From a virus: a DNA stretch of 14,785 nt. The number at the start of each line of letters is the position of its first letter. Position 1 is the first letter of the stretch. Where the stretch lies: UHGV virus genome UHGV-1885740, one strand, 5' to 3'. Shown here piece by piece: positions 1-11,422 of this stretch. The notes below the pieces were generated by a model that saw nothing but the letters and a program-made list of their open reading frames with translations, ran no database searches and was not told the origin of the DNA. The position numbers and the translations under genes were made by a program.

Positions 1-216
1 AGTGCAGCAGGCCAGGCGCATGACCACAACAACGGGAGCACTAATATTGATCCATCTTACGTAATGAAACGGATCCGGACTTGCAAGAATAAAGAGCAGG
101 TGTATAACGTCATAGATTGGCTGGACTCCCTGGGTGATGTGGTTTACAATAGGTTTTCTGCAGCTATTGAAATTCAGTTAGACAGGTTGGACGGGAAAGT
201 ACTGAAAACTTACTGA
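1..216 (+). CDS. hypothetical protein, 3' end only (gene begins upstream of window)
   Basis: Frame 1 is open from position 1 to TGA at 214-216 (71 codons, no internal stop); the 45-bp repeat element starts 2 nt after the stop. Confidence 0.45.
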   Translation, partial: SAAGQAHDHNNGSTNIDPSYVMKRIRTCKNKEQVYNVIDWLDSLGDVVYNRFSAAIEIQLDRLDGKVLKTY

Positions 217-217
217 G

Positions 218-262
218 TTTATTTTTAGATGGCCTTGACTCCAGGGCCATCAATAAAGTAAA
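218..262 (+). repeat. 45-bp direct repeat, copy 1 (promoter-like; TTGACT 235-240, TAAACT 259-264; internal hairpin GATGGCC/GGCCATC 228-251)
   Basis: Identical 45-mer tttatttttagatggccttgactccagggccatcaataaagtaaa recurs at 3953-3997; both copies start 2-3 nt after a stop codon and lie about 45 nt upstream of the next ATG. Confidence 0.8.
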
Positions 263-305
263 CTTTATACTGTTAACACTGAACTAATGCATAGGAGTTA
301 AAACC

Positions 306-551
306 ATGGCAGCACTAATCACCAAATATTATGCCCCTACCAACACCAAAAGCGCCCGTATCATGGTAAAAGGCTTCGGACGTAAAAAGGTGTACACCTG
401 GGATTATTCCCTAGACATGGAAGACAACTACACCAACGCAATGACCGATTTTATTAATGAACTAAATAAGCAGATCTTGACAAATTATAAAATTACCGAT
501 ATTGCCTATATAGGGGAAGGCGGGATCTGTTTTGTCGGTATCGTCAAATAA
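306..551 (+). CDS. hypothetical protein (81 aa)
   Basis: ATG start with AGGAG (293-297) 8 nt upstream; ORF-track frame; downstream of repeat copy 1. Confidence 0.7.
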   Translation: MAALITKYYAPTNTKSARIMVKGFGRKKVYTWDYSLDMEDNYTNAMTDFINELNKQILTNYKITDIAYIGEGGICFVGIVK

Positions 552-626
552 GCTGTTTTTTCGGTGGTCCTGGTAGCAGGGCCATCTATAAAGATAGTTT
601 ATCAACACAATGAAAGGAGAAAGTAC

Positions 627-980
627 ATGATCAGCGGGGCAAGTTTTATTATTGGCGCTATTGCTACGGCTTTAATTGTAAACAAGATCCAATCTAAAAA
701 CGAAAAAGAGAGCAACGCGCTCACAGAATACCCATTTTGGGTATTCAACGACAAGGAAGACTACATTATCAAGTACAAGAATGAGAAGGGCGACCAGGTA
801 ACACCGCGACCGATCCCGGCTTACAAGATGCAAGAAACACTATACCGCCTAAAGGCTGGAGGCGCAAAAATCGTAGACTTTTGGGGATATGATTGCAAGG
901 ATCAGGAGGTTATAAAACGGCGTATCCGGGCGATTCAGACAAATATTGAGATCAGTAAGGGGGAAAGTTATGAAAATTAA
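627..980 (+). CDS. hypothetical membrane protein (117 aa, N-terminal hydrophobic helix ISGASFIIGAIATALIV)
   Basis: ORF-track frame 564-980 begins at GTG; the internal ATG at 627 has AGGAG (615-619) 7 nt upstream, so the start was moved there. Confidence 0.65.
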   Translation: MISGASFIIGAIATALIVNKIQSKNEKESNALTEYPFWVFNDKEDYIIKYKNEKGDQVTPRPIPAYKMQETLYRLKAGGAKIVDFWGYDCKDQEVIKRRIRAIQTNIEISKGESYEN

Positions 981-1167
981 TTTCGAAAAAATTGTAAAGC
1001 GATCTCATGATTCCGAAGAGTTGCCGGAACGCCGCCAGCGCAACAATAAACTGAATAAGCCAAAAAGATTTGGGAAGATCTGGCGGAATCATTATGATCG
1101 TAAATTACCTGGCCTGCTTTTGGAACGTGAACGACAGGCGGAACGGTACCGCCATAAAGACAAATAA
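970..1167 (+). CDS. hypothetical basic protein (65 aa)
   Basis: ORF-track frame 946-1167 begins at TTG; ATG at 970 follows AAGGGGGA (956-963); overlaps the stop of the upstream gene; followed by a terminator. Confidence 0.55.
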   Translation: MKINFEKIVKRSHDSEELPERRQRNNKLNKPKRFGKIWRNHYDRKLPGLLLERERQAERYRHKDK

Positions 1168-1175
1168 CAACCAAC

Positions 1176-1204
1176 GCCCCGCCATTGTGCGGGGCTTTTT
1201 ATTT
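1176..1204 (+). terminator. intrinsic terminator
   Basis: Stem GCCCCGC/GCGGGGC with loop CATTGT followed by TTTTTATTT, 9 nt after the stop at 1167. Confidence 0.8.
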
Positions 1205-1337
1205 CTATCCTACGAATAGCGCCCCTGGTTGGCCCCACAAACGCCACAAAAGCCCCTACCTATGCAATCCCCTTTATTGACCTGAAAACATCACCCAGGG
1301 CCGTTTTATGGTGTTAAAAATATCTTTTATTTAAAGC

Positions 1338-1366
1338 TTGACACCTTGGAATCGCCTGGATATACT
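1338..1366 (+). promoter_or_regulatory. sigma70-like promoter (TTGACA-17-TATACT)
   Basis: TTGACA 1338-1343, 17-nt spacer, TATACT 1361-1366, AT-rich upstream; precedes the Shine-Dalgarno site and ATG at 1402. Confidence 0.75.
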
Positions 1367-1401
1367 AACCACATCAAAGCAAGAAGGAAGGAGTAAACGC
1401 C

Positions 1402-1752
1402 ATGCGTAAATTAAAAAATTTTGATAAAGTCGATGTTGTCCTGAATAATTTTTACTACTGCAATAATAAGGCCGTTTGGTGGCGTGATAGTTCCACCGAT
1501 AAAGTTAAAGCTCGCTTTCTCCAAGGGCACTGGCAAGGCCGTCCAGTGATTAAAATCCTGGGGCAATTGGTAGCGTTTAAAAATTGCCGCCGTGTTGATG
1601 ACGTTGAAGAGATTCTAAACATTTTACGCCACAATAATTTAAAAAAAATAGTGTTGACAAGTAAGTCTCAACAAGTATACTTAAGCACACAGGCGGGAAA
1701 ACTTCCAGCCACTAACAAAGAAAATAGGAGAAAATATCATGACCACCGTTAA
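1402..1752 (+). CDS. hypothetical protein (116 aa)
   Basis: ATG with AAGGAAGGAG upstream; ORF track; 3' end overlaps the next gene start by 14 nt. Confidence 0.7.
   Translation: MRKLKNFDKVDVVLNNFYYCNNKAVWWRDSSTDKVKARFLQGHWQGRPVIKILGQLVAFKNCRRVDDVEEILNILRHNNLKKIVLTSKSQQVYLSTQAGKLPATNKENRRKYHDHR
1654..1681 (+). promoter_or_regulatory. sigma70-like promoter (TTGACA-16-TATACT) with A-tract upstream
   Basis: TTGACA 1654-1659 and TATACT 1676-1681, preceded by AATAATTTAAAAAAAATA; lies inside the 3' end of CDS 1402-1752. Confidence 0.7.
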
Positions 1753-2362
1753 CATTACTACAGGTTACAATTTATCTTTCGACGTGCTGACCGACGAACA
1801 AAAAGAAAAAGCTGTTGAAATGGTCCGCGAAAGAGAAGAACACAGCGGGGATAACTTTTTTGCAGAAAGTGTAATTGAATACTATAAAGAATATGTTTTT
1901 CCAGAGTACGGGCTTGAAGATACCAAGGTACAGTGGTCCGGCTTTTGGTGTCAAGGCGACGGCGCATCAATTAGCGCTGAAAATGTAAACTTAGAAAAAT
2001 TCTTGCGTAAGGTTAAAGCGCTTACAAAATTTCGCTCAATTAGACACTTGTTCGGCACAATGCACGATGGCGAACTATCAGCCAGCGTTGAACGTATCCC
2101 GTTTAGCCATTATCATCACGAAAACACAATAGGCGGGTGCATCGATACCAACTGGCTAGACCTGACCACCAAGCAAGAGGATAAAGTTGAAGAGCTGGAA
2201 GAGCTGATCACCGAGACGGTACGGGAGCTATCCCGCAAGGTTTACGTAGACCTGGAGCAGGCCTATCTTGAACAATTCACTACCGAAAACCTGATCGGCC
2301 TTATCGAGGCCAATGATTGGCGGTTTGATGTGGATGAGTATGGCGAGATGACTTTTTCATAA
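1739..2362 (+). CDS. hypothetical acidic protein (207 aa; largest gene in the window)
   Basis: ATG with TAGGAG (1725-1730) 8 nt upstream; ORF track; E/D-rich C-terminal half; no family recognised by eye. Confidence 0.8.
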   Translation: MTTVNITTGYNLSFDVLTDEQKEKAVEMVREREEHSGDNFFAESVIEYYKEYVFPEYGLEDTKVQWSGFWCQGDGASISAENVNLEKFLRKVKALTKFRSIRHLFGTMHDGELSASVERIPFSHYHHENTIGGCIDTNWLDLTTKQEDKVEELEELITETVRELSRKVYVDLEQAYLEQFTTENLIGLIEANDWRFDVDEYGEMTFS

Positions 2363-2370
2363 ATAAAGTG

Positions 2371-2398
2371 TTGCAATAACCTAAAAACCTGCTATATT
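2371..2398 (+). promoter_or_regulatory. sigma70-like promoter (TTGCAA-16-TATATT)
   Basis: TTGCAA 2371-2376, TATATT 2393-2398; followed by a GC hairpin at 2408-2426, then AAGAGG and ATG at 2452. Confidence 0.65.
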
Positions 2399-2451
2399 AA
2401 AACTCAAGGGGCAAGACGTTTGCCCCCACACAAAACAAAGAGGAAAACATC

Positions 2452-2832
2452 ATGAAAAACACTACTAAAGCTATTGACACCGTTATGTTTAACCTGGTTA
2501 CCTTTCGCGAGGATATGAAAGATCTTCCACGTGAAACAGTGTGCGATCACATTGAAAACTATCGCAAACTAATCAAAGAGTTGCCTTTAAAACGTGACCA
2601 GTATGCGGCTAACGCCATGCTTAATGCCATGATCAAAAAGATGATTCAGTGTGATTTAACTCTGGCCTATGACTATGCGGGTGGTCGTTTTGCAGTATAC
2701 AATCAGCCCGTGCCCGGTATGGGCACCACCGAAGAATTGCACGCGCTCAATCTAAAACAAGACGTATGGGATAACATGCCCCGCGTGGTGGTGTGGGCAG
2801 AAAGCGGAAAGATTTACGGCGATAATTTTTAA
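2452..2832 (+). CDS. hypothetical protein (126 aa)
   Basis: ATG with AAAGAGG 2437-2443; ORF track. Confidence 0.8.
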   Translation: MKNTTKAIDTVMFNLVTFREDMKDLPRETVCDHIENYRKLIKELPLKRDQYAANAMLNAMIKKMIQCDLTLAYDYAGGRFAVYNQPVPGMGTTEELHALNLKQDVWDNMPRVVVWAESGKIYGDNF

Positions 2833-2841
2833 TCAGGTAAC

Positions 2842-2867
2842 AGGCGGCATATTTGCCGCCTTATTGT
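2842..2867 (+). terminator. probable intrinsic terminator (weak U-tract)
   Basis: Stem AGGCGGC/GCCGCCT with loop ATATTT followed by TATTGTT; 10 nt after the stop at 2832. Confidence 0.5.
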
Positions 2868-2896
2868 TAAACAGAACTGCAAAAGAGGTACATAGA

Positions 2897-3268
2897 ATGG
2901 AATTTATTATTTTGGCTGTAGTAGTTGCCTTGTTCAACGCCTGGATCGCTGGCAAGATGGGTAGATCCGCCTTTTTATGGTTTATTATATCTATTTTCCT
3001 GGGGGTGGTTGCAACTATTGTACTTGTTATCCTTGCAATTGTTGACAAGGGGAATAATAGAAAGGGTAAAGTATTTTCAGACCTGTACGACGCTCAAACG
3101 TTTGTCAACGCCTATTATAGTGATCTTCCAGTCTCCCTACGCTGCAGCCTGGCACAACAAGTTTTCGATGAGGCTAAAACCAGAGATCAAGCCCATGAGA
3201 TATGTTTAACTGAGGCGGATCGCCTATTTGAGAGGAATAGAAAATATGTGGGCCAACCGTTTAAATAA
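2897..3268 (+). CDS. hypothetical membrane protein (123 aa, two N-terminal transmembrane helices)
   Basis: ORF-track frame 2864-3268 begins at TTG; ATG at 2897 has AAGAGG (2883-2888) 8 nt upstream; helices IILAVVVALFNAWIA and FLWFIISIFLGVVATIVLVILAIV. Confidence 0.7.
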   Translation: MEFIILAVVVALFNAWIAGKMGRSAFLWFIISIFLGVVATIVLVILAIVDKGNNRKGKVFSDLYDAQTFVNAYYSDLPVSLRCSLAQQVFDEAKTRDQAHEICLTEADRLFERNRKYVGQPFK

Positions 3269-3491
3269 TGCCACGTTAATTAATCCCTTTAGTGAAGATT
3301 TGAAGCCAGCCGCCTGGCGTGATGGATTCAATAACGAACGCTTTATTTTCAAGCCTGATCTTGAGGAATTTTATAACAATGGATCGAACAACAGCGGAGA
3401 TAATTTTTCTTGGGATGTGCGTGGTGATGGTACTCCTGGGGGCCATTGTAGATCGCGTCACTACTACCAGAAGGAAAGGGGGAGACGATGA
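3246..3491 (+). CDS. hypothetical protein (81 aa)
   Basis: ORF-track frame 3228-3491 begins at TTG; ATG at 3246 follows GAGAGGAA; its stop overlaps the next ATG as ATGA (3488-3491). Confidence 0.5.
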   Translation: MWANRLNNATLINPFSEDLKPAAWRDGFNNERFIFKPDLEEFYNNGSNNSGDNFSWDVRGDGTPGGHCRSRHYYQKERGRR

Positions 3492-3607
3492 CAACCAAGG
3501 ATAAGCCATGCACCGATAAGGTGCGCCGCGTTATGGTATGGCTTGAGATTATCGCCCTTGAAATATTGCTAGGCGTAGGGATGTACTTTATCGCTGTAAG
3601 TAACTAA
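3488..3607 (+). CDS. small membrane peptide (39 aa, MTTKDKPCTDKVRRVMVWLEIIALEILLGVGMYFIAVSN)
   Basis: Below the ORF-track size cutoff; ATG preceded by purine-rich AAGGAAAGGGGGAG; ATGA overlap with the upstream stop; terminator follows 5 nt after its stop. Confidence 0.45.
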   Translation: MTTKDKPCTDKVRRVMVWLEIIALEILLGVGMYFIAVSN

Positions 3608-3611
3608 GAAC

Positions 3612-3640
3612 GGCCCCCGATCATGGGGGCCTATCTTTTA
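3612..3640 (+). terminator. intrinsic terminator (A11 run follows, possibly bidirectional)
   Basis: Stem GGCCCCC/GGGGGCC with loop GATCAT, then TATCTTTT and AAAAAAAAAAA (3640-3651). Confidence 0.75.
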
Positions 3641-3665
3641 AAAAAAAAAAATTACTTCCGGGGTG

Positions 3666-3694
3666 TTGCAATCCGGTCCGGAATGTGGATAATA
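3666..3694 (+). promoter_or_regulatory. sigma70-like promoter (TTGCAA-17-ATAATA)
   Basis: TTGCAA 3666-3671, ATAATA 3689-3694; 5' hairpin GGGGA/TCCCC at 3704-3718; AAAGGAG before ATG at 3750. Confidence 0.7.
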
Positions 3695-3749
3695 ACAATC
3701 AACGGGGAGCTAATCCCCACCACCACAAAAACCAGAAAGGAGAAACAAA

Positions 3750-3950
3750 ATGAGCAACAATATCCGCGTTATTAACTTCAAAAAAGAAGAAAAAATTGCC
3801 GTGCTGATTGACGGTCAAGAAATCTTCAAGGGCGACTATGAAGATCATCAAACGGCGATTAGTATCACTCGCGTGATTGGTTACCATAATTTTTACCCTC
3901 AAGGCGCTGAGGCAGCAGTAAAACGAATTAAGGAGATTGTAGGCCTGTAA
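3750..3950 (+). CDS. hypothetical protein (66 aa)
   Basis: ATG with AAAGGAG 3736-3742; ORF track. Confidence 0.75.
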   Translation: MSNNIRVINFKKEEKIAVLIDGQEIFKGDYEDHQTAISITRVIGYHNFYPQGAEAAVKRIKEIVGL

Positions 3951-3952
3951 AA

Positions 3953-3997
3953 TTTATTTTTAGATGGCCTTGACTCCAGGGCCATCAATAAAGTAAA
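3953..3997 (+). repeat. 45-bp direct repeat, copy 2 (promoter-like; TTGACT 3970-3975)
   Basis: Identical to 218-262; starts 3 nt after the stop at 3950; upstream of CDS 4042-4341. Confidence 0.8.
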
Positions 3998-4041
3998 TTT
4001 AAACCCTGTTAAAATAATCAGTGCAAAAAGGAGTAATGATC

Positions 4042-4341
4042 ATGTTTATCCAGGCTAATAATCTTTATTTCTTTGATGGTCAGATCGTAGACGGCGTGGA
4101 GGTGGAAATCACCGGGTGCCCTGGCGGTCAGGTTATGACTTTTCGGAATAATGCCTTTGATGATTCTCATATCGTTATGAGAATGGAAGTTAGTAAGCTG
4201 GATGACAAGAAAACACTTATCGACTATTCCGTCAAAGATCATCCAGACTACCACATGATCTATGGTGATTTGTGCATTGTTGACCGTGACAAGGTGGGCG
4301 GCATTGTGATCGCTATTGTGAACGATGTTTTCTCAAACTAA
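4042..4341 (+). CDS. hypothetical protein (99 aa)
   Basis: ORF-track frame 4021-4341 begins at GTG; AGGAG 4029-4033 gives an 8-nt spacing to the ATG at 4042 (the ATG at 4036 is only 2 nt away). Confidence 0.7.
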   Translation: MFIQANNLYFFDGQIVDGVEVEITGCPGGQVMTFRNNAFDDSHIVMRMEVSKLDDKKTLIDYSVKDHPDYHMIYGDLCIVDRDKVGGIVIAIVNDVFSN

Positions 4342-4358
4342 TTTCAGCAGGTGATTTT

Positions 4359-4439
4359 ATGAAAGTAAAACTATATTACCTTAATGAGCTTAACCCCCTT
4401 GCCCAGGTCCGCGCCCTGGCAGGGCCTGCAGCGATATAA
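4359..4439 (+). CDS. possible short ORF (26 aa, MKVKLYYLNELNPLAQVRALAGPAAI)
   Basis: ATG 5 nt after AGGTGA; ends 6 nt before a strong terminator; contains a CAGGGCC palindrome; could be a leader peptide or non-coding. Confidence 0.25.
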   Translation: MKVKLYYLNELNPLAQVRALAGPAAI

Positions 4440-4445
4440 TCACAT

Positions 4446-4479
4446 AAAGGCTATGCGGTTGCATAGCCTTTATTATTTT
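4446..4479 (+). terminator. intrinsic terminator
   Basis: 11-bp stem AAAGGCTATGC/GCATAGCCTTT with loop GGTT, followed by ATTATTTT. Confidence 0.8.
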
Positions 4480-4526
4480 AGCGTTACAGCGGCCCCAAGG
4501 CGCTTAAAAAATTTTTAAAGAAGTAC

Positions 4527-4555
4527 TTGCATCAAGTCCTACAATATGGATAATA
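4527..4555 (+). promoter_or_regulatory. sigma70-like promoter (TTGCAT-17-ATAATA) with AT-rich upstream element
   Basis: TTGCAT 4527-4532, ATAATA 4550-4555, upstream AAAAAATTTTTAAAG; 5' GC hairpin at 4566-4579; TAGGAG before ATG at 4612. Confidence 0.7.
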
Positions 4556-4611
4556 GGACGTGTCAGGGGGGCGGCCCCCAATCATTAACCGGATAGATAG
4601 GAGTTAAAATC

Positions 4612-4896
4612 ATGGCTATTGTCACCGTTGGCGATGTAGTGGAAATGGAAGCAAAATACTTAAAAGCGGGTATGCATATCCTACGGAATGATCAAGAATT
4701 GTTATTAACGATGGTAGACTATAATCCCGGCCAGGATTATCCAAGCATCGACTACTTTTTTGAGTATGTTGATGAAGAATTGAAAGAGGATGAGGCTTAT
4801 CAGGGTGAATTCTGCAATTTCTTTTGCCCTGATGAGGTTGTAAAAGTTATCTATCAACCTGGCGTACCTTTCCCGCTGCACGCTATCAATAAATAA
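4612..4896 (+). CDS. hypothetical acidic protein (94 aa)
   Basis: ATG with TAGGAG 4598-4603; ORF track. Confidence 0.8.
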   Translation: MAIVTVGDVVEMEAKYLKAGMHILRNDQELLLTMVDYNPGQDYPSIDYFFEYVDEELKEDEAYQGEFCNFFCPDEVVKVIYQPGVPFPLHAINK

Positions 4897-4950
4897 ACCT
4901 GGCGGGGCCGAAAAGGCCCCAATTATGAAAATAAAGAGAGGTAAATCATC

Positions 4951-5184
4951 ATGATGGAACAAATTAAACGCGCTGAGGCTATTAATGGCAATGTGATCTA
5001 TTTTGTCAGCAAAAACGAAAAAGGCGTACCATATGCGGCGGTAATAGTACAACCTGACGGCGATTATTGGTTTACTGTATACGGATCTTATTCTTTTGGG
5101 CGTCCAGTGCATGATAAAATTTTGAAAGTAGCGAACCCTACCGGGAAAAATATCACAGCAGAAAAATTTTTTGAAAATAGTTGA
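4951..5184 (+). CDS. hypothetical protein (77 aa)
   Basis: ATG with AGAGAGG upstream; ORF track; its TGA stop (5182-5184) sits inside the -35 hexamer of the next promoter. Confidence 0.75.
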   Translation: MMEQIKRAEAINGNVIYFVSKNEKGVPYAAVIVQPDGDYWFTVYGSYSFGRPVHDKILKVANPTGKNITAEKFFENS

Positions 5185-5209
5185 CATGACCATATAAGAC
5201 TGTAGTATA
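5181..5209 (+). promoter_or_regulatory. sigma70-like promoter (TTGACA, -10 TAGTAT/AGTATA)
   Basis: TTGACA 5181-5186, -10 around 5203-5209; 5' hairpin GGGGC/GCCCC at 5220-5234; AAGAGG before ATG at 5261. Confidence 0.65.
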
Positions 5210-5260
5210 TAAATCAAAGGGGGCAACAAGCCCCACCAACCACAAAGAGGATAAAAAATC

Positions 5261-5440
5261 ATGGCTATTATTGCAAAGACTGAGATCGTAGGCTTAGATT
5301 CTATTCTTCTCGCATATGAGGAAGCTATAGAAATGTATGTGGTTTCCTATGGTGAATATATCCGTGAATATAAATCTATTGATCTAGCTTTTGAATGTTA
5401 TATTCGCCAGGTCAATAAAGCATATGATGATTATCGTTAA
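5261..5440 (+). CDS. hypothetical protein (59 aa)
   Basis: Below the ORF-track cutoff; ATG with AAAGAGG 8 nt upstream; own promoter and 5' hairpin; ordinary codon usage. Confidence 0.65.
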   Translation: MAIIAKTEIVGLDSILLAYEEAIEMYVVSYGEYIREYKSIDLAFECYIRQVNKAYDDYR

Positions 5441-5446
5441 AATAGT

Positions 5447-5474
5447 TTGACAACAGTCAACAATCTGGTAAAGT
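5447..5474 (+). promoter_or_regulatory. sigma70-like promoter (TTGACA-16-TAAAGT)
   Basis: TTGACA 5447-5452; -10 TAAAGT 5469-5474; 5' hairpin GCGGGAA/TTCCCGC at 5487-5503; GAGGG before ATG at 5523. Confidence 0.6.
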
Positions 5475-5522
5475 GTACTACATAGCGCGGGAATACTTCC
5501 CGCCATTAATGAGGGTAGAATC

Positions 5523-5627
5523 ATGTTAGATAAAATTTTCACGGTTGTAGTAGTTGGCCTGGCATTATCGGTTGGAGTGGTTGCAACTATGGCTAACATG
5601 ATCCTATCTTCCCATGGTATCGGTTAA
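5523..5627 (+). CDS. small hydrophobic peptide (34 aa, MLDKIFTVVVVGLALSVGVVATMANMILSSHGIG)
   Basis: Not in the ORF track (too short); has its own promoter, 5' hairpin and GAGGG 7 nt upstream; a single predicted transmembrane helix. Confidence 0.5.
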   Translation: MLDKIFTVVVVGLALSVGVVATMANMILSSHGIG

Positions 5628-5637
5628 GGTGAATCAA

Positions 5638-5853
5638 ATGATCACGAATAAGACAGGTAAAACGGAATTCTTGCGAGGCTTGCAGATCGGCAAGCCAGAG
5701 ATCTGGCATTGCACTAAAACACCACGTGACGAAATGAAAGACTTCACCGCCACGCTGCAACGGGTAAAGATATCCATCACGCAGAAAAAGGCCTTGATAG
5801 TGGTGGAAGGTGAGATCCCGCAAACCGTTGTTATAGTTGAGCGTACAGCATAG
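5638..5853 (+). CDS. hypothetical protein (71 aa)
   Basis: ORF-track frame 5614-5853; ATG at 5638 is 5 nt after AAGGTGA (5626-5632), whereas the ATG at 5614 has no Shine-Dalgarno site. Confidence 0.6.
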   Translation: MITNKTGKTEFLRGLQIGKPEIWHCTKTPRDEMKDFTATLQRVKISITQKKALIVVEGEIPQTVVIVERTA

Positions 5854-5944
5854 TTTAATTTATAGCGATACCTGAAAATTAACCAATAAATCATAAACAG
5901 GCGGTTACCGCCGCCTTAAACGTAGCAGAAAGAGGCTAGACACA

Positions 5945-6229
5945 ATGAAAAAGATGATCGCAGTAGTTGCCCTGGTTGTTGGACTTAATGCGCCTGTAAT
6001 GGCTAAAGAGCTGGCAAAAGAGGTTAATCTAACGGATATCCATGCCGTCAATCAAATCGGGGTTACTTATCGCTTATGCCTTGCCGCTAAAACTTTTAAT
6101 GACGGCACAACAGAGTACTACGGATTCGAGGGTATCCGGTGCGGTGAGCTTGCTCGCGACCTTAAGGAAGATCCAGACCTGGAAGATCTGCCCATCACCG
6201 TAAACGGTAAAGCTTACGTAAACCGTTAA
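5945..6229 (+). CDS. hypothetical secreted/periplasmic protein (94 aa, N-terminal signal peptide)
   Basis: MKKMIAVVALVVGLNAPVMA followed by KE looks like a Sec signal peptide with an AxA-type cleavage site; no lipobox cysteine; AAAGAGG upstream. Confidence 0.75.
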   Translation: MKKMIAVVALVVGLNAPVMAKELAKEVNLTDIHAVNQIGVTYRLCLAAKTFNDGTTEYYGFEGIRCGELARDLKEDPDLEDLPITVNGKAYVNR

Positions 6230-6231
6230 CC

Positions 6232-6366
6232 ATGAGAAAGATAATCATCACCTTGGGGATTGTGGCTGGATCGCTGGCGCTCTTTCCCCTTATGGTTAGG
6301 TATGTGCTAATCAGTATTGTCCTGGTAGTCAGTGATCTATTGGGAACGGTTGGCACCTTGTTTTAA
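6232..6366 (+). CDS. small membrane protein (44 aa, two hydrophobic segments)
   Basis: ATG 2 nt after the upstream stop, no obvious Shine-Dalgarno site (coupling assumed); MRKIIITLGIVAGSLALFPLMVRYVLISIVLVVSDLLGTVGTLF. Confidence 0.4.
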   Translation: MRKIIITLGIVAGSLALFPLMVRYVLISIVLVVSDLLGTVGTLF

Positions 6367-6377
6367 AGAGCGATAAA

Positions 6378-6569
6378 ATGAATATCGAACAAGTTAGAAA
6401 GGTATTGGCGGTACTGCGTTATCATAATCATAGAAAGGTTATAGACGATCCTGATTATGTTGATTCAAGTCTGGAAGGGGATACACTGCAAGCCATAAGC
6501 AACATGCAAGAATTGCTCAAGCGCATGACAGAGAAAAACCGACCGGACTACATAGGCGAAAAAATATAA
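6378..6569 (+). CDS. hypothetical protein (63 aa)
   Basis: ATG with AAAGAG upstream; ORF track; terminator 17 nt downstream. Confidence 0.65.
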   Translation: MNIEQVRKVLAVLRYHNHRKVIDDPDYVDSSLEGDTLQAISNMQELLKRMTEKNRPDYIGEKI

Positions 6570-6585
6570 TCCTTATAAACTACAA

Positions 6586-6614
6586 AACAGGGCTTGCAAT
6601 GGTCCTGTTTTTTG
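6586..6614 (+). terminator. intrinsic terminator
   Basis: Stem AACAGGG/TCCTGTT with loop CTTGCAATGG followed by a T6 run. Confidence 0.7.
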
Positions 6615-6697
6615 TTATACTTGTTTCACGGCAGGCACCTGGCGACGGGTGGAGACAATCACCGGGCCTGCCTGTCATATAAGAACTATAAAAACCG

Positions 6698-6726
6698 TTG
6701 ACATCTGCCATGGGGTGGGGTAACAT
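6698..6726 (+). promoter_or_regulatory. sigma70-like promoter (TTGACA-17-TAACAT)
   Basis: TTGACA 6698-6703, TAACAT 6721-6726; 5' hairpin GGGCA/TGCCC at 6738-6751; CAGGAGAGAGG before ATG at 6781. Confidence 0.7.
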
Positions 6727-6780
6727 TTATCTTGAAGGGGCAAAAGTGCCCACACAATAACCAGGAGAGAGGAAAACACT

Positions 6781-7053
6781 ATGTCAAGCTGGATTAATCA
6801 AGAAGTCGAATCACGTTTTAATGCTATTTGGGATCTCATCGAAAAAGAAGACGGCACATCAAGCCCCTACCTCAACAATTTGGAATTCCATTTTGTGGAA
6901 GCGATGAACGCAGAACATGATCACGAAGGTGGCGCGGATGAGTTCGCTAAAGGTTATGGCTTTAACAATGCCAACGAAATGATCGAGGCGGTCGTACTCC
7001 AGGCTGAGGAAGATTATCAATTAAAAACACTTGAATTCTGCCGCCATAAGTAA
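6781..7053 (+). CDS. hypothetical acidic protein (90 aa)
   Basis: ATG with a purine-rich Shine-Dalgarno site; ORF track. Confidence 0.8.
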   Translation: MSSWINQEVESRFNAIWDLIEKEDGTSSPYLNNLEFHFVEAMNAEHDHEGGADEFAKGYGFNNANEMIEAVVLQAEEDYQLKTLEFCRHK

Positions 7054-7059
7054 TAAGAT
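7031..7059 (+). promoter_or_regulatory. sigma70-like promoter (TTGAAT-17-TAAGAT), overlapping the 3' end of CDS 6781-7053
   Basis: TTGAAT 7031-7036, TAAGAT 7054-7059; 5' hairpin GGGCC/GGCCC at 7068-7081; AGAGAGAAAG before ATG at 7114. Confidence 0.55.
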
Positions 7060-7113
7060 AATGACACGGGCCAAAAGGCCCACTAATCAGAACCACACAA
7101 AGAGAGAAAGAAA

Positions 7114-7332
7114 ATGACAACCCGTAAAATTAAAGTTGTTTGCATTGAATCGACTGGGGGCGCTTTTGTAGTTGGTCAGGAATATAATGCGGTTTTAATG
7201 GGTACGGATTGGAAGGTTAAAGGCCTTAATGGTTACGAGTACGGCACTACTTGCGGCTTGCGTGGTCGAATCGGATACGTGAGTTTAGACAATAAAGAAA
7301 AATTTGTTTTCGACACCGTTGTGAGTAAATAG
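7114..7332 (+). CDS. hypothetical protein (72 aa)
   Basis: ATG with a purine-rich Shine-Dalgarno site; ORF track. Confidence 0.75.
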   Translation: MTTRKIKVVCIESTGGAFVVGQEYNAVLMGTDWKVKGLNGYEYGTTCGLRGRIGYVSLDNKEKFVFDTVVSK

Positions 7333-7409
7333 CATGAATTGCTAAAGACTGATCTGCGAACTGCTGTATTATCAACTAATCAAAACGAACCACATAAAGA
7401 GGAAACATC

Positions 7410-7672
7410 ATGAAACGTCTGGATCAGCTTAAATTAGTTCAGTACATGGCCTACAGAATTCTTGAAGTCCAGAAAGGTAGCAAAAAAGAGGTTTGCGAGA
7501 AAGCTTATAAGATCTTCACTCGTAAAAAGATGATTGGATGTTACGCCAGACCAAAAAGGCTGACATCTTGGGGTACCTGGAAGAAGAGATCCGCCTTGAA
7601 GAGCAAGAAGAGATCCGCCGTAGTGAGGCAGATTATCAGGCAGCTTGGGAAAACTGGATGAGCAACAAATAA
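7410..7672 (+). CDS. hypothetical protein with an apparent frame change (frame 0 from 7410; -1 frame from about 7526 to TAA 7670-7672)
   Basis: The ORF-track frame (7410-7661) turns K/R-rich with rare AGA/AGG codons after about 7530, while the -1 frame reads DILGYLEEEIRLEEQEEIRRSEADYQAAWENWMSNK with ordinary codons. A T-AAA-AAG motif sits at 7523-7529, and a 15-bp direct repeat lies at 7581-7595 and 7606-7620. Alternatively two genes, the second starting at ATG 7538. Confidence 0.5.
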
Positions 7673-7691
7673 TACAACAAGGTGCACGGTC

Positions 7692-7717
7692 AGGGGCTTA
7701 AAGCCCCTTTCTTTTTG
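7692..7717 (+). terminator. intrinsic terminator closing the rightward gene module
   Basis: Stem AGGGGC/GCCCCT with loop TTAA followed by TTCTTTTTG. Confidence 0.8.
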
Positions 7718-8322
7718 TCTCCTCTTTTCCTACCACAAATGGCCCCGCCTGGCAAATGGAATAATCAACAAGCCAGCAATTAACCCCACTGTACAAACAT
7801 ACATATAAAATAACTATTGCATAATTTTTCATTGTGTGGTAGCAGGGCCATTTTTACACGTTTTTCCTTCCAAAATTGCACGTAATGCAGCATTTGCACA
7901 AAATTTAACCTGATGCATATCTTCAATAGCTTGTCAACAACTAAAAATTCTTATAAGTCATACACTTACATAACTACAAAAGCGTTTTCTACGTGAAAAA
8001 TCGAGTATAACTATAGCCGCCAGATCTCAGAATTTACGTACGCTCGCCATTCTATAGCCTGCTAAGCATTTATTCCAACCATAGAATAACGGAATAGTCA
8101 ATACCTGCATAAAATAATTATTCGTGTAAACTGCATAACATAAATCGGCCCAAGTGTCAACATTTTTCGTAAACAGTCTGGAATTGTCACGTTAGGTTAC
8201 CATAAGCAGAGAAATCTTTAGTCGTCTAATGTTTACTGTACGTTACTATACTAACTGGAATCATTAGATGACTAATAGAAAGATAAGAAATAATTAACAA
8301 TACAATTATTCTATCTGTAACA

Positions 8323-8593
8323 ATAAGGCAACTATGCAAACGAATGGCATGGCGCGACGGAGTCGCGACATAATATAAAAGCAGTAACCATCACCCCCGT
8401 GATAGTTTGTCTGCAATCTATTAATCAGATCATAGTTGCCTTGTATTCAGTTAATCATGACATAACAAGCAAGGCAACTATAGATCTGCTAATAGTTGCC
8501 CTGCTTTTATATTATGTCATGCTAATTATAATCAGTGCGATTATTGTCATGTATAATTATTGTCATGCAAACGAATGGCATGGCTTATCATTT
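8323..8593. repeat. nested inverted/direct repeat element (about 270 bp)
   Basis: AAGGCAACTAT at 8325-8335 and 8471-8481, with inverted copies at 8432-8442 and 8492-8501; 18-bp direct repeat TGCAAACGAATGGCATGG at 8335-8352 and 8566-8583; 18-bp perfect inverted repeat 8367-8384 / 8501-8518; palindrome CGCGAC-GGA-GTCGCG around 8354-8368. Confidence 0.8.
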
Positions 8594-8610
8594 TTGAGTA
8601 AATAATCTAT

Positions 8611-8716
8611 ACGTTAACAGTAAGCTATGTAAACTATTGGGAATGTAAACAGTAAAGGTCATGAACAGTAAGCGAGCGAATAGTAATAGCGTGAATAGTG
8701 ACAGCGTAAACAGTCA
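8611..8716 (+). repeat. tandem iteron-like array (about 7 units, 15-16 bp period, core GTAAACAGT / GAAYAGT)
   Basis: Cores at 8614, 8629, 8645, 8661, 8677, 8692 and 8706; further isolated copies in both orientations at about 8169, 8843, 8989 and 9719. Confidence 0.75.
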
Positions 8717-9298
8717 TGCATGTCAATTATGTTCAGTGTGTTTAATGTGCTTAAAGTGTCATATTATGTCAGACAAGTTTTTCTCCTCTTTGTCAAGTGC
8801 TGCATGAAAAATTTACAAGCTTGTATGGTAGCATTTTTGCGGCCCTGTTTACATTCAGTGTTGTATGTATAATCCTTGTTGTGTGGGCGTTTAGACGTCT
8901 GGACGGTCAGAAGTCTGCAGGTCAATATCTAATCTATTGGCTGCTAACTATATCCCCCCACAAATAATAAGAAATATAATTGTTATGTGCGTAAACAGTA
9001 ACCTATGTTATCAATCCCTGTATGTATCGCCAGTGGTGCGCATAATGGGTATTATGTTAAATTGCCCGTAATGATAAAGATTCTCACAATGATAGGTATT
9101 CTCATTCACCCTCACAAAATAGATTGCAAATGTTGTGCCACTGTGTGAACGGCCTCACCTATTAATTTGCCTCACTGCCTCGATATTTGAGAATTATTAT
9201 AAGAATGAGAAGTATTCCCATTCCGTCCGCCTGGCAGCACTCCAGTCGCTACCGCTCATGACAGGGCAGAACTGGGCCCATTCAGATATTTCTGACTG

Positions 9299-9567
9299 AC
9301 TCTTCAGGTCTGTGTGGGAAAAGACAACCTCTCCGGCGGGACAGGGGGATATCTGAGGAGAAATTGCAGGTCAATTAAAAAATTTACGTGGTGTATGAAG
9401 CGATCTTCAGGCAAGGTATGTATTATGGGATGAAACCCTCTTCAGGCAATGATATTTGTGGGTGTGATATTTGCTGGAAAGCCAGATATGACGGGACTCC
9501 CGGCGGGGCAGGGGTAGTACAGACAGGGAAAATATGGGGATGTAGTTGGGTAAATTGATCAGGCAGG
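9299..9567 (+). repeat. cluster of CTCTTCAGG-family motifs plus a GC-rich direct repeat CCGGCGGG(R)CAGGGG
   Basis: CTCTTCAGG at 9300-9308 and 9438-9446 (also 9850-9858 and 10500-10508); GATCTTCAGG 9402-9411; GATCAGGCAGG 9557-9567; CTCCGGCGGGACAGGGGG 9331-9348 against CTCCCGGCGGGGCAGGGG 9497-9514. Confidence 0.7.
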
Positions 9568-10210
9568 TAGAGTATGGAATATGTTACAGGTATGTTAAAT
9601 AGGGAGGCTGAATATCTGTAGGATTTGTGTGTAAAATCAAAGACTTAAGTGGTGTTGCGGTATTTTCTATAAATAATTCAAGTTTAATAGGTAATATTTG
9701 TCTCTATTCGCTTTGTGTGGTAAACAGATTCAGATGAGATTGGTTTACAAGTGTATACATAATATACAAATTAAAGATACAAGAAACCCCCTCCCCCTTC
9801 GGCTACCATTCACCTTTTCCTCTGACTGGTACTTAAACACTTATTCAGACTCTTCAGGTTATCACCCATATATCATATGGCAGTGACTGGTGTCCTCCGG
9901 CCCCTCTTTCGTCACCCGTCCGCTTCGCCATGCTAATGCCATAGCCAATGGTTCGGTTGTTCACCCTGTTCACTCAGGTGTATCTCCATACCCCTTCAAA
10001 CCGAAGAGAACAGAAAACCCGAATTACTCGGTAAAAGAAAAGAGAAGAACTTAATTTTATCAGGATAGGCAAGAATGTCAAGGCATGACTGCTCACTAAA
10101 CAAGCAAACAGTCATGTGTGGAAGGTAAGTGATTGTGGTGGTGGGAAATTTAGTTGAAAGATGTGTTATAGGTGCGCTTCCAGCACTTTGGCCGGGCAGC
10201 TAATTGTGCG

Positions 10211-11122: not shown

Positions 11123-11422
11123 CTATACCCACGAGGGCTTATCAAGGTTGGAGTAGCTGAAAGGTGTCAAAAGGTGACTGTCAAAATCTCTCAAACTATC
11201 CAAATCTTTTTCCTCGTCCTGACACCATCTGTGCCTACATTTGTTGTTGTAGTGCATGGAATGCATAGCGTTCTGCAACTTAACAGGCACAAGTGATTCA
11301 GGAGTAGATAGTATTGTTGGGTATGCCAGAACCACCTCAAACAGTGGAAACACATCGAAACTAAAGTCTACCTCTGCAGAGGTTGATGGCATGTAGGAGT
11401 ATTTAGCCGCCTTTGTAGACAT
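11123..11422 (-). CDS. hypothetical protein (99 aa)
   Basis: ORF-track frame 11123-11434 begins at GTG; ATG at 11422 follows GAGGTGG; closely follows the upstream gene. Confidence 0.65.
   Translation of the reverse strand: MSTKAAKYSYMPSTSAEVDFSFDVFPLFEVVLAYPTILSTPESLVPVKLQNAMHSMHYNNKCRHRWCQDEEKDLDSLRDFDSHLLTPFSYSNLDKPSWV

Follow-up and report, generated by a model that had tools for sequence, protein, structure and literature searches.

Why does a short GC-rich hairpin recur between the promoter and the ribosome-binding site of one small gene after another? The question is raised by UHGV virus genome UHGV-1885740, a 14,785-nucleotide (nt) stretch of viral DNA that we call the window when its full length is meant, and in particular by its positions 2371-7332, where a sequence-only reading had noticed seven such hairpins and had proposed that they sit at the 5' ends of early messages and protect them. 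Phage records with a match to this 4.9-kb stretch number 250, and in 104 of these at least 80% of the stretch is covered; because the top match is Escherichia phage APECc02 (97%), with rV5 at 94%, the window can be assigned to a Vequintavirus, that is, an rV5-like coliphage. Most small early genes of the region share a unit of ~95 bp, here called a cassette, made up of an AT-rich stretch, a promoter, a hairpin, an A/C spacer, a Shine-Dalgarno (SD) site and the ATG. The pattern is real, non-random and conserved, and the unit is common to three coliphage lineages, namely Vequintavirinae, the phi92 group and jumbo phage 121Q. As to what the hairpin does, the reading that we favour, with somewhat less than even confidence, is that of a 5'-proximal RNA stem-loop that may stabilise and insulate early mRNAs within a mobile expression cassette.

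Promoter-coupled hairpins upstream of small early genes

All seven hairpins noticed earlier, which define cassettes 1 to 7 (2408-2426, 3704-3718, 4566-4579, 5220-5234, 5487-5503, 6738-6751 and 7068-7081), are present, and folded as isolated RNAs they reach -6.8 to -11.1 kcal/mol. Each is preceded by a sigma70-like promoter, and the first paired base lies 8-12 nt from the end of the -10 element, so that the distance of 5-10 nt originally given has to be corrected. The spacer between hairpin and SD site, 7-19 nt long, consists of 52% A, 31% C, 5% G and 11% T (n = 96; 83% A+C), against an intergenic background in this region of A 35, C 21, G 20 and T 23 (56% A+C). The CA-rich spacer claimed from the sequence is thus borne out, and the AAGAGG or AGGAG said to follow it is found for five of the seven SD sites (AGGAG three times, AAGAGG twice), the other two being GAGG in cassette 5 and AGAGAG in cassette 7. 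SD site and ATG are separated by 7-13 nt, the 30 nt upstream of the promoters are 63-77% A+T, and the predicted 5' untranslated region (UTR) is 41-50 nt long. When the predicted full leaders are folded, the hairpin is the sole stable structure, and the SD site and AUG remain unpaired.

Taken singly, the leaders give z-scores of only -0.2 to -4.3, and each lone hairpin is therefore modest evidence; the signal is positional. On the + strand of the window, a perfect hairpin follows the -10 element at 5-16 nt at five of nine gene-proximal promoter-like sites, compared with 0.10 on average in 200 shuffles, none of which exceeded 2. The same test gave 10/20 in phi92, where shuffles gave 0.34, as well as 6/14 in 121Q and 7/15, 9/18 and 5/14 in three further genomes (L004, L005 and L006, respectively), so that the enrichment over shuffles is seen in all six genomes tested. 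Across the 135-kb genome of APECc02, nine promoter-hairpin pairs fall at +8 to +14 after the -10, as against ~0.15-0.2 per offset elsewhere. A chance origin is rejected by the shuffle test and by this offset peak.

The position of the hairpin is coupled to the -10 element, and not to the upstream stop codon. In a set of 59 non-redundant cassettes, the 5' edge of the hairpin lies 11.5 +/- 1.6 nt from the -10 (standard deviation 0.97 within Vequintavirus and 1.63 overall), while the standard deviation is 3.3 nt for the distance from hairpin to SD site and 3.7 nt for that to the ATG. Transcription from sigma70 promoters starts ~6-9 nt after the -10. Given the gap of 8-12 nt, the start cannot fall downstream of the stem, and the hairpin must therefore be part of its own promoter's transcript. 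The promoters themselves have independent backing, in that five of the seven, plus the one at 1654 described below, coincide with PhagePromoter annotations in the record of the relative Gotham. The -35 box is weak in two of the seven, at 4527 and 7031.

Close relatives and other coliphage lineages

We compared the hairpins with their orthologs in nine Vequintavirus sequences, in which they are kept nearly everywhere. Loops vary among these relatives (aac, gtt or caa at one site, gctaa or aca at another), and changes in the stems leave G.U or paired positions, as in the replacement of GGGGG/CCCCC by GGAGG/CCTCC. The stems differ between cassettes and between lineages, yet nearly all are perfect: 59 unique cassette hairpins have perfect Watson-Crick stems, compared with about a dozen that carry one mismatch. 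Stems also persist while loops and spacers diverge, and this persistence, together with the perfect stems, may point to selection on pairing itself. APECc02 has nine of its ten + strand cassettes at 24.5-33 kb, among small hypothetical genes, and the tenth, at 5.4 kb, precedes a methyltransferase gene; its cassettes at 5.4, 24.5 and 27.1 kb are additional to those of the window.

The same arrangement extends to other coliphage lineages. Gene 2452-2832, which follows cassette 1, has homologues with 63-71% amino acid identity in phi92-like phages (Stephanstirmvirinae) and in the jumbo phage 121Q and its kin, and upstream of these homologues and of their neighbours the layout matches, with different sequences; at the equivalent position, orthologous genes in phi92-like phages and 121Q have stems that cannot be aligned. 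There are 11-12 cassettes in 18 kb of phi92, at least nine in 12 kb of each of two phi92-like contigs from IMG/VR, and six in 12 kb of 121Q, the last with TTGCAA-16-TATAAT followed after 12-14 nt by a G-first hairpin such as GCGGGAAnnnTTCCCGC. A scan of IMG/VR for 'TTGACA..TAnnnT..GCGGGAAnnnTTCCCGC' returned seven sites in five contigs of 97-153 kb, at least three of which are rV5- or phi92-like, and, in the search for more relatives, a metagenome scan gave only four loci and an IMG/VR protein scan another four. Within phi92 and 121Q the stems are stereotyped, following G(G)CGGGAA(A)-N3-5-(T)TTCCCG(C)C. One phi92-like hairpin, AGGCGGTGG..CCACCGCCT, has the loop aatagc in L004 (8912-8935) and its reverse complement gctatt in L005 (9179-9202), and the palindrome appears to have been flipped.

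This variation bears on the possibility, which we judge improbable, that the hairpin is a recognition site for a factor in nascent RNA or DNA, whether a boxB/nut-like or put-like element that modifies RNA polymerase, a target of early shut-off or translational repression, or a mark by which phage messages are told from those of the host. Such a site would fit the fixed position just past the start of many early units, the stereotyped stems of phi92 and 121Q, and the polarity of the hairpins, which are G-first in 48 of 53 cassettes compared with a ratio of 51:31 for T-tailed hairpins. As with lambda boxB and HK022 put, it would be a promoter-proximal RNA hairpin in early transcripts, and the hairpins at 6738 and 7068, with 5-bp GC stems and A-rich loops (aaag and aaaa), are superficially similar to lambda boxB. 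Against this, loop sequence is not conserved and loop length ranges from 3 to 9 nt (gacgt, gctaa, gcgg, aacaa, tac, aaag and aaaa in the window), and the stems are diverse within the window phage (GGGGCAA, GGGGA, GGGGG, GGGCA and GGGCC). No boxA-like match stands beside any hairpin: the search for such motifs gave ten matches where 7.3 were expected, none adjacent to a hairpin. Unlike lambda and HK022, these phages have a promoter for each gene, and put is a much larger two-stem structure. Nor would antitermination be needed in units that each start from their own promoter and in many cases have a terminator as well. The half-sites are spaced 16-24 bp apart and differ from each other, and a dimeric-repressor operator was rejected on these grounds. 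Rfam 15 gave no match at the gathering score, and two sub-threshold hits, with E values of 0.7 and 0.95, are of the kind expected by chance. An operator or boxB-like identity is thus unlikely.

The cassettes of the window and their junctions

The window's region is a Vequintavirus early ORFan region. Positions 1-7700 form a rightward block of ~23 small genes that ends at a terminator (7692-7708); the region 7700-10100 is non-coding and lies between convergent blocks, with leftward genes beyond. None of the ten window proteins searched against Pfam matched a family above the cut-off, and the tRNA search found none. True terminators of the region, which have T-runs, are at 1176, 2842, 3612, 4444, 6584 and 7692. 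The terminal repeat of Gotham falls in or near the homologue of the non-coding region, which corresponds to the 'non-coding' box of rV5. This gene-poor segment also contains two repeats, a direct one of 20 nt, ATGCAAACGAATGGCATGGC, with exact copies at 8334 and 8565, and an inverted one with perfect 18-nt arms at 8367-8384 and 8501-8518.

All cassettes of the window are on the + strand. Upstream of the seven is an eighth, cassette A, which was absent from the earlier list. Its promoter TTGACA-16-TATACT (1654-1681), at whose homologous place Gotham has an annotated promoter, is followed by the hairpin GGCGGGAAaacTTCCaGCC (1692-1710), which has one G.A mismatch in the window and a perfect 8-bp stem in 9/9 relatives, and by a spacer and start region (1711-1741) with SD site AGGAG at 1726-1730 and ATG at 1739. 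Cassette 1 has the promoter TTGCAA-16-TATATT (2371-2398), with a TG preceding the -10 and an exact match to a Gotham PhagePromoter feature; its hairpin GGGGCAAgacgtTTGCCCC (2408-2426; 7 bp, loop of 5) begins 9 nt past the -10, and the segment 2427-2454 holds the spacer cacacaaaaca, the SD site AAGAGG at 2438-2443 and ATG 2452. The promoter of cassette 2, TTGCAA-16-GATAAT (3666-3693), sits after the terminator 3612-3631, and its 5-bp hairpin GGGGAgctaaTCCCC (3704-3718), 10 nt past the -10, is followed at 3719-3752 by the spacer accaccacaaaaaccagaa, SD site AGGAG at 3738-3742 and ATG 3750. Similarly, cassette 3 comes after the terminator 4444-4473; its promoter TTGCAT-16-GATAAT (4527-4554), read from the sequence, has one of the weak -35 boxes and is overlapped by a Gotham promoter feature, its hairpin GGGGGgcggCCCCC (4566-4579) is the one that appears as GGAGG/CCTCC, with G.U intermediates, in relatives, and its spacer segment (4580-4614) contains SD site AGGAG at 4599-4603 and ATG 4612.

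The promoters of the next three cassettes all have a TTGACA -35 box. That of cassette 4, TTGACA-16-TAGTAT (5181-5208), matches a Gotham promoter feature exactly and precedes the hairpin GGGGCaacaaGCCCC (5220-5234) and a segment (5235-5263) with the spacer accaaccaca, SD site AAGAGG at 5245-5250 and ATG 5261. Cassette 5, whose promoter TTGACA-16-TAAAGT (5447-5474) again has a TG before the -10 and is a Gotham promoter feature, has a hairpin, GCGGGAAtacTTCCCGC (5487-5503), with the kind of stem that is also seen in phi92-like phages and in 121Q, and then the spacer cattaat, SD site GAGG at 5511-5514 and ATG 5523 (5504-5525). The promoter of cassette 6, TTGACA-17-TAACAT (6698-6726), is a further exact match to a Gotham promoter feature, with the hairpin GGGCAaaagTGCCC at 6738-6751 and the spacer acacaataacc, SD site AGGAG (6763-6767) and ATG 6781 at 6752-6783. 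Cassette 7 has a weak promoter, TTGAAT-17-TAAGAT (7031-7059), that lies within the end of gene 6781-7053; its hairpin GGGCCaaaaGGCCC (7068-7081), the leader of which has the z-score of -4.3, is followed at 7082-7116 by the spacer actaatcagaaccacacaa, SD site AGAGAG at 7101-7106 and ATG 7114, and this leader is duplicated at 7375-7409.

Two further + strand hairpins have no promoter. One, a 'half cassette' GGGGCCgaaaaGGCCCC (4904-4920), stands 30 nt upstream of gene 4951, whose homologue in phi92 (92% amino acid identity) has a full promoter-hairpin cassette; the other, AGGCGGTtaccGCCGCCT (5899-5916), stands before gene 5945. Just upstream of the promoter at 6698 there is also an element at 6594-6690 in which a promoter-like TTGCAA-16-TATACT lies inside the terminator 6584-6611 and is followed, 8 nt past TATACT, by a 47-nt G-first hairpin (6630-6676; -23.9 kcal/mol) with no open reading frame after it. 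The hairpin region is largely conserved in eight relatives, and the element might serve as a tandem promoter or encode a small RNA.

As repeats, the cassettes can also provide the homology for recombination events in which single genes are gained or lost. We compared the window with six relatives for indels longer than 200 bp, and three of the four indels have their junctions in repeated regulatory sequence, two of them in cassette or leader sequence and one in a class-2 promoter/stem-loop repeat. HdK5, MaxBurger and PMBT16 have an extra 138-nt gene between two promoter-hairpin cassettes. In the window the corresponding junction (5503-5517) lies immediately 3' of hairpin 5487-5503, within the shared spacer, and in APECc02 the gene was lost by a different crossover, inside the promoter spacer, so that this one gene was lost by two independent crossovers. 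Gene 7114-7332, flanked by the duplicated leader of cassette 7, is missing from HdK5, PMBT16 and two further genomes (L003 and L022). Relatives have an additional gene at window position 216-264, between two copies of the class-2 repeat. This repeat (218-265, 553-600 and 3953-4000, with a partial copy at 7837-7856) forms a hairpin, tttatttttagaTGGCCTTGACTCCAGGGCCAtcaataaagtaaa, of -24 to -25 kcal/mol and holds a -35-like TTGACT with TAAACT or TAAATT 18 nt on; each full copy directly follows a stop codon. At window position 4414-4420, ~290 bp are absent compared with all six relatives and a gene is truncated; no cassette is involved in that junction, where the microhomology is limited to 7 nt.

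Exchange may also have taken place over larger distances. ORFans 4951-5184, 5261-5440, 5523-5627, 5638-5853 and 7114-7332 encode proteins 83-94% identical to those of phi92 or ECO340P1, members of a different subfamily, and the cassettes upstream of these shared genes are in each case of the recipient lineage's flavour, a combination that suggests recent exchange of single genes between lineages. Upstream of the 7114 homologue in the Phapecoctavirus ECO340P1 (L027, ~11290-11377) we observed a stem-loop, CTATAGCGCCttacaatGGGCGCTATAG, whose loop contains the -10-like TACAAT.

These junctions raise the question of whether the hairpin matters as RNA at all. The palindromes and their flanks might serve at the DNA level only, as modules for the recombinational shuffling of ORFans or to assist promoter escape by placing a G-rich stretch in the initially transcribed region, and the RNA hairpin would then be functionless. 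The junctions in repeated sequence, with the two crossovers for one gene, are what shuffling modules would produce, as are ORFans that move between subfamilies and appear in the recipient's cassette flavour, the reverse-complemented loop in two phi92-like genomes, and the lack of a G.U excess over A.C mismatches (10 and 7, respectively). However, homologous recombination needs repeats and not a palindrome fixed 8-14 nt from the -10, and promoter escape has no need of dyad symmetry. The predominance of perfect Watson-Crick stems, and their persistence where loops and spacers are lost to divergence, also speak against a function in DNA alone, which we therefore regard as rather unlikely.

Known stem-loops and a possible role in early messages

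The closest known counterparts are the promoter-early stem-loops (PeSLs) of the T4-like phages RB49/phi1, PST/T4 and nt-1/KVP40 described by Arbiol et al. 2010 and Comeau et al. 2014 (PMC2839356, PMC4122927). A PeSL is an intergenic cassette found in ORFan-rich regions and composed of an AT-rich stretch, a strong sigma70 early promoter and a Gn-loop-Cn stem-loop, for which these authors proposed the termination of upstream transcription and the provision of recombination sites that shuffle single genes (PMC2839356, PMC4122927). The PeSL concept also includes the formation of mini-circles. Both kinds of cassette have the AT-rich stretch, a near-consensus sigma70 promoter, the Gn-loop-Cn structure, an A/C leader and an SD site, and both occur in many copies per genome, in hyperplastic regions of small ORFans and at the junctions of single-gene indels between close relatives. 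They differ in where the stem-loop stands. The stem-loop of the RB49 type, described as 'GN-loop-CN' (PMC4122927), lies inside the promoter, between -35 and -10 or over the -10 (starts at -24, -16 and -14 relative to the -10 end when RB49 is measured by our script), whereas in the window phage, phi92 and 121Q it lies 8-14 nt downstream of the -10; the former has been read as a terminator for upstream transcription, and the latter is in the transcript of its own promoter. The host lineages differ as well, being here Vequintavirinae, Stephanstirmvirinae and Asteriusvirus, and in the searchable literature PeSLs outside T4-like phages are not reported, apart from passing mentions. The cassettes are best filed as a positional variant of the PeSL kind in lineages for which it had not been described. 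The class-2 repeat of the window, with its -35 inside the stem-loop, fits the classical PeSL geometry, and the ECO340P1 stem-loop, as judged from its sequence, likewise has RB49-style geometry in a lineage that also has the downstream type. The PeSL match goes beyond the sequence-only reading, as do the eighth cassette, the sharing among three lineages and the repeats at indel junctions.

The PeSL precedent makes it necessary to consider punctuation, that is, a hairpin that attenuates or terminates read-through from upstream or acts as a 3' exonuclease barrier for a processed upstream message. The stem-loops of RB49 and phi1 are likewise Gn-loop-Cn, and one of them cut lacZ expression like a strong terminator (PMC2839356, PMC4122927). 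The cassettes at 2371, 5181, 5447 and 7031 have no terminator upstream, the hairpin being the only intergenic structure, the promoterless hairpins at 4904 and 5899 stand just past stop codons, and the HdK5 record (L002) labels the homologue of 5220-5234, at 6239-6253, a 'putative transcriptional terminator', despite the preceding promoter and the lack of a T-run. Similarity to intrinsic terminators is limited to a GC hairpin of comparable size, one copy of which has thus been so annotated publicly; the cassette hairpins have no U-tract (0-3 T in the 9 nt after each stem), are followed by A/C-rich bases and stand after a promoter and not at a gene end. The sequence-only claim that they are not terminators therefore stands, and a canonical terminator identity is ruled out by the absent U-tract, with no + strand entry for any of the seven in the terminator scan. 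A terminator past the start of its own promoter would moreover kill its own transcript, a difficulty that the RB49 stem-loop, inside the promoter, does not share. The cassettes at 3666, 4527 and 6698 directly follow true terminators, so a terminator role would be redundant there, and it is to the -10, not to the upstream stop codon, that the hairpin is fixed. We consider punctuation of this kind unlikely.

Stem-loops at the start of a message are themselves familiar, one being found in the T7 gene 10 leader. Stabilising 5'-terminal stem-loops of E. coli are those of ompA and papA (Emory 1992, Bouvet 1992, Arnold 1998, reviewed in PMC3997798), which the cassette hairpins, at the start of a predicted 5' UTR, resemble in being short GC stem-loops with no conserved sequence and with an open ribosome site after them. 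Those are one-off structures, whereas here a stereotyped module is reiterated on many genes. RppH and RNase E require single-stranded 5' ends (PMC3997798), from which the stabilising effect of 5' structures follows. Under the favoured reading, that of a stabilising and insulating 5'-proximal stem-loop, each site would be a copy of a self-contained cassette for early-gene expression. Host RNA polymerase would start 2-5 nt before the stem, and the hairpin would be the first fold of the transcript, where it could make the 5' end less accessible to RppH and to the 5'-end sensor of RNase E. Local folding and the unpairable spacer would keep the ribosome site open in any upstream context, with stable, context-independent expression of small takeover genes as the outcome, and a module with such a spacer would be suited to movement between genomes. 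A role linked to the 5' end predicts a hairpin edge that is coupled to the promoter, as seen in the standard deviations of 1.6 nt to the -10 vs 3.7 nt to the ATG. The analysis shows the anatomy, the enrichment, the coupling of position to the promoter, the conservation across lineages and the indel junctions in cassette repeats; the start sites, the formation of the hairpin in vivo and its stabilising or insulating effect are inferred. According to the rV5 genome paper, that phage probably encodes a homologue of T4 Srd (PMC3606486); in T4, Srd stimulates RNase E against host mRNA (PMC4980113), and such a protein would make a need for mRNA protection plausible. The same genome paper lists 33 promoters and 20 terminators and does not mention hairpins after the promoters (PMC3606486).

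Several observations weigh against this interpretation. RppH is able to use two or more unpaired nucleotides, and protection of the ompA type needs ~4 or fewer. The unpaired 5' overhang, predicted from promoter geometry, is 2-5 nt in the window and ~3-7 nt in phi92 and 121Q, where the gaps are 11-14 nt, so that protection may be partial or absent. Of the 5'-end claim in the sequence-only reading, the place of the hairpin downstream of the predicted start, within the 5' UTR and with a promoter-coupled edge, has held, but the predicted overhang is at or beyond the margin for protection; and what is established for ompA and papA, the blocking of RppH and the RNase E sensor, here depends on a predicted overhang. 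Single hairpins also seem dispensable, because the strong promoter at 1338 has none, that at 1692 is weakened in the window by its G.A mismatch, and a deletion of 4 nt has removed the 5220 hairpin from Gotham. The promoterless hairpins at 4904-4920 and 5899-5916, on the other hand, resemble those of the cassettes.

Nor does the pattern of substitution single out RNA. Covariation across relatives, a check that had been suggested together with the hairpins, was not significant at hairpin 4566-4579: one double change and three G.U intermediates were present among nine sequences, and 214 of 500 shuffles did as well. Among single stem mismatches, G.T outnumbered A.C by 7 to 2 in a first sample and by only 10 to 7 once more genomes were added, and sense and antisense folding energies showed no difference, although the A/C-rich flanks confound that comparison; neither result was taken as evidence for selection at the RNA or at the DNA level. 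A simple stability model also leaves the G-first polarity and the recurrent G(G)CGGGAA stem of phi92 and 121Q unaccounted for. We found in the literature no start-site maps or earlier descriptions for rV5, phi92 or 121Q/RaK2-type phages.

There is also a slight chance, in our estimation, that the hairpin and its C/A tract are a cis-acting mark on the early messages of at least three coliphage lineages, which would be read by a phage or host factor and would travel with ORFans as an exchangeable module between unrelated phages, for example sparing phage transcripts while RNase E is driven against host mRNA by an Srd-like protein.

If the stem-loops are indeed at the 5' ends of early messages, then the cassettes would represent a natural, reiterated design for stable and context-independent expression, and mobile cassettes of the PeSL type would extend beyond the T4-like phages. 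Public annotation, in which at least one such hairpin is labelled a terminator, would have to be corrected. The finding also brings the protection of a phage's own early mRNA within reach of a concrete and cheap experiment.

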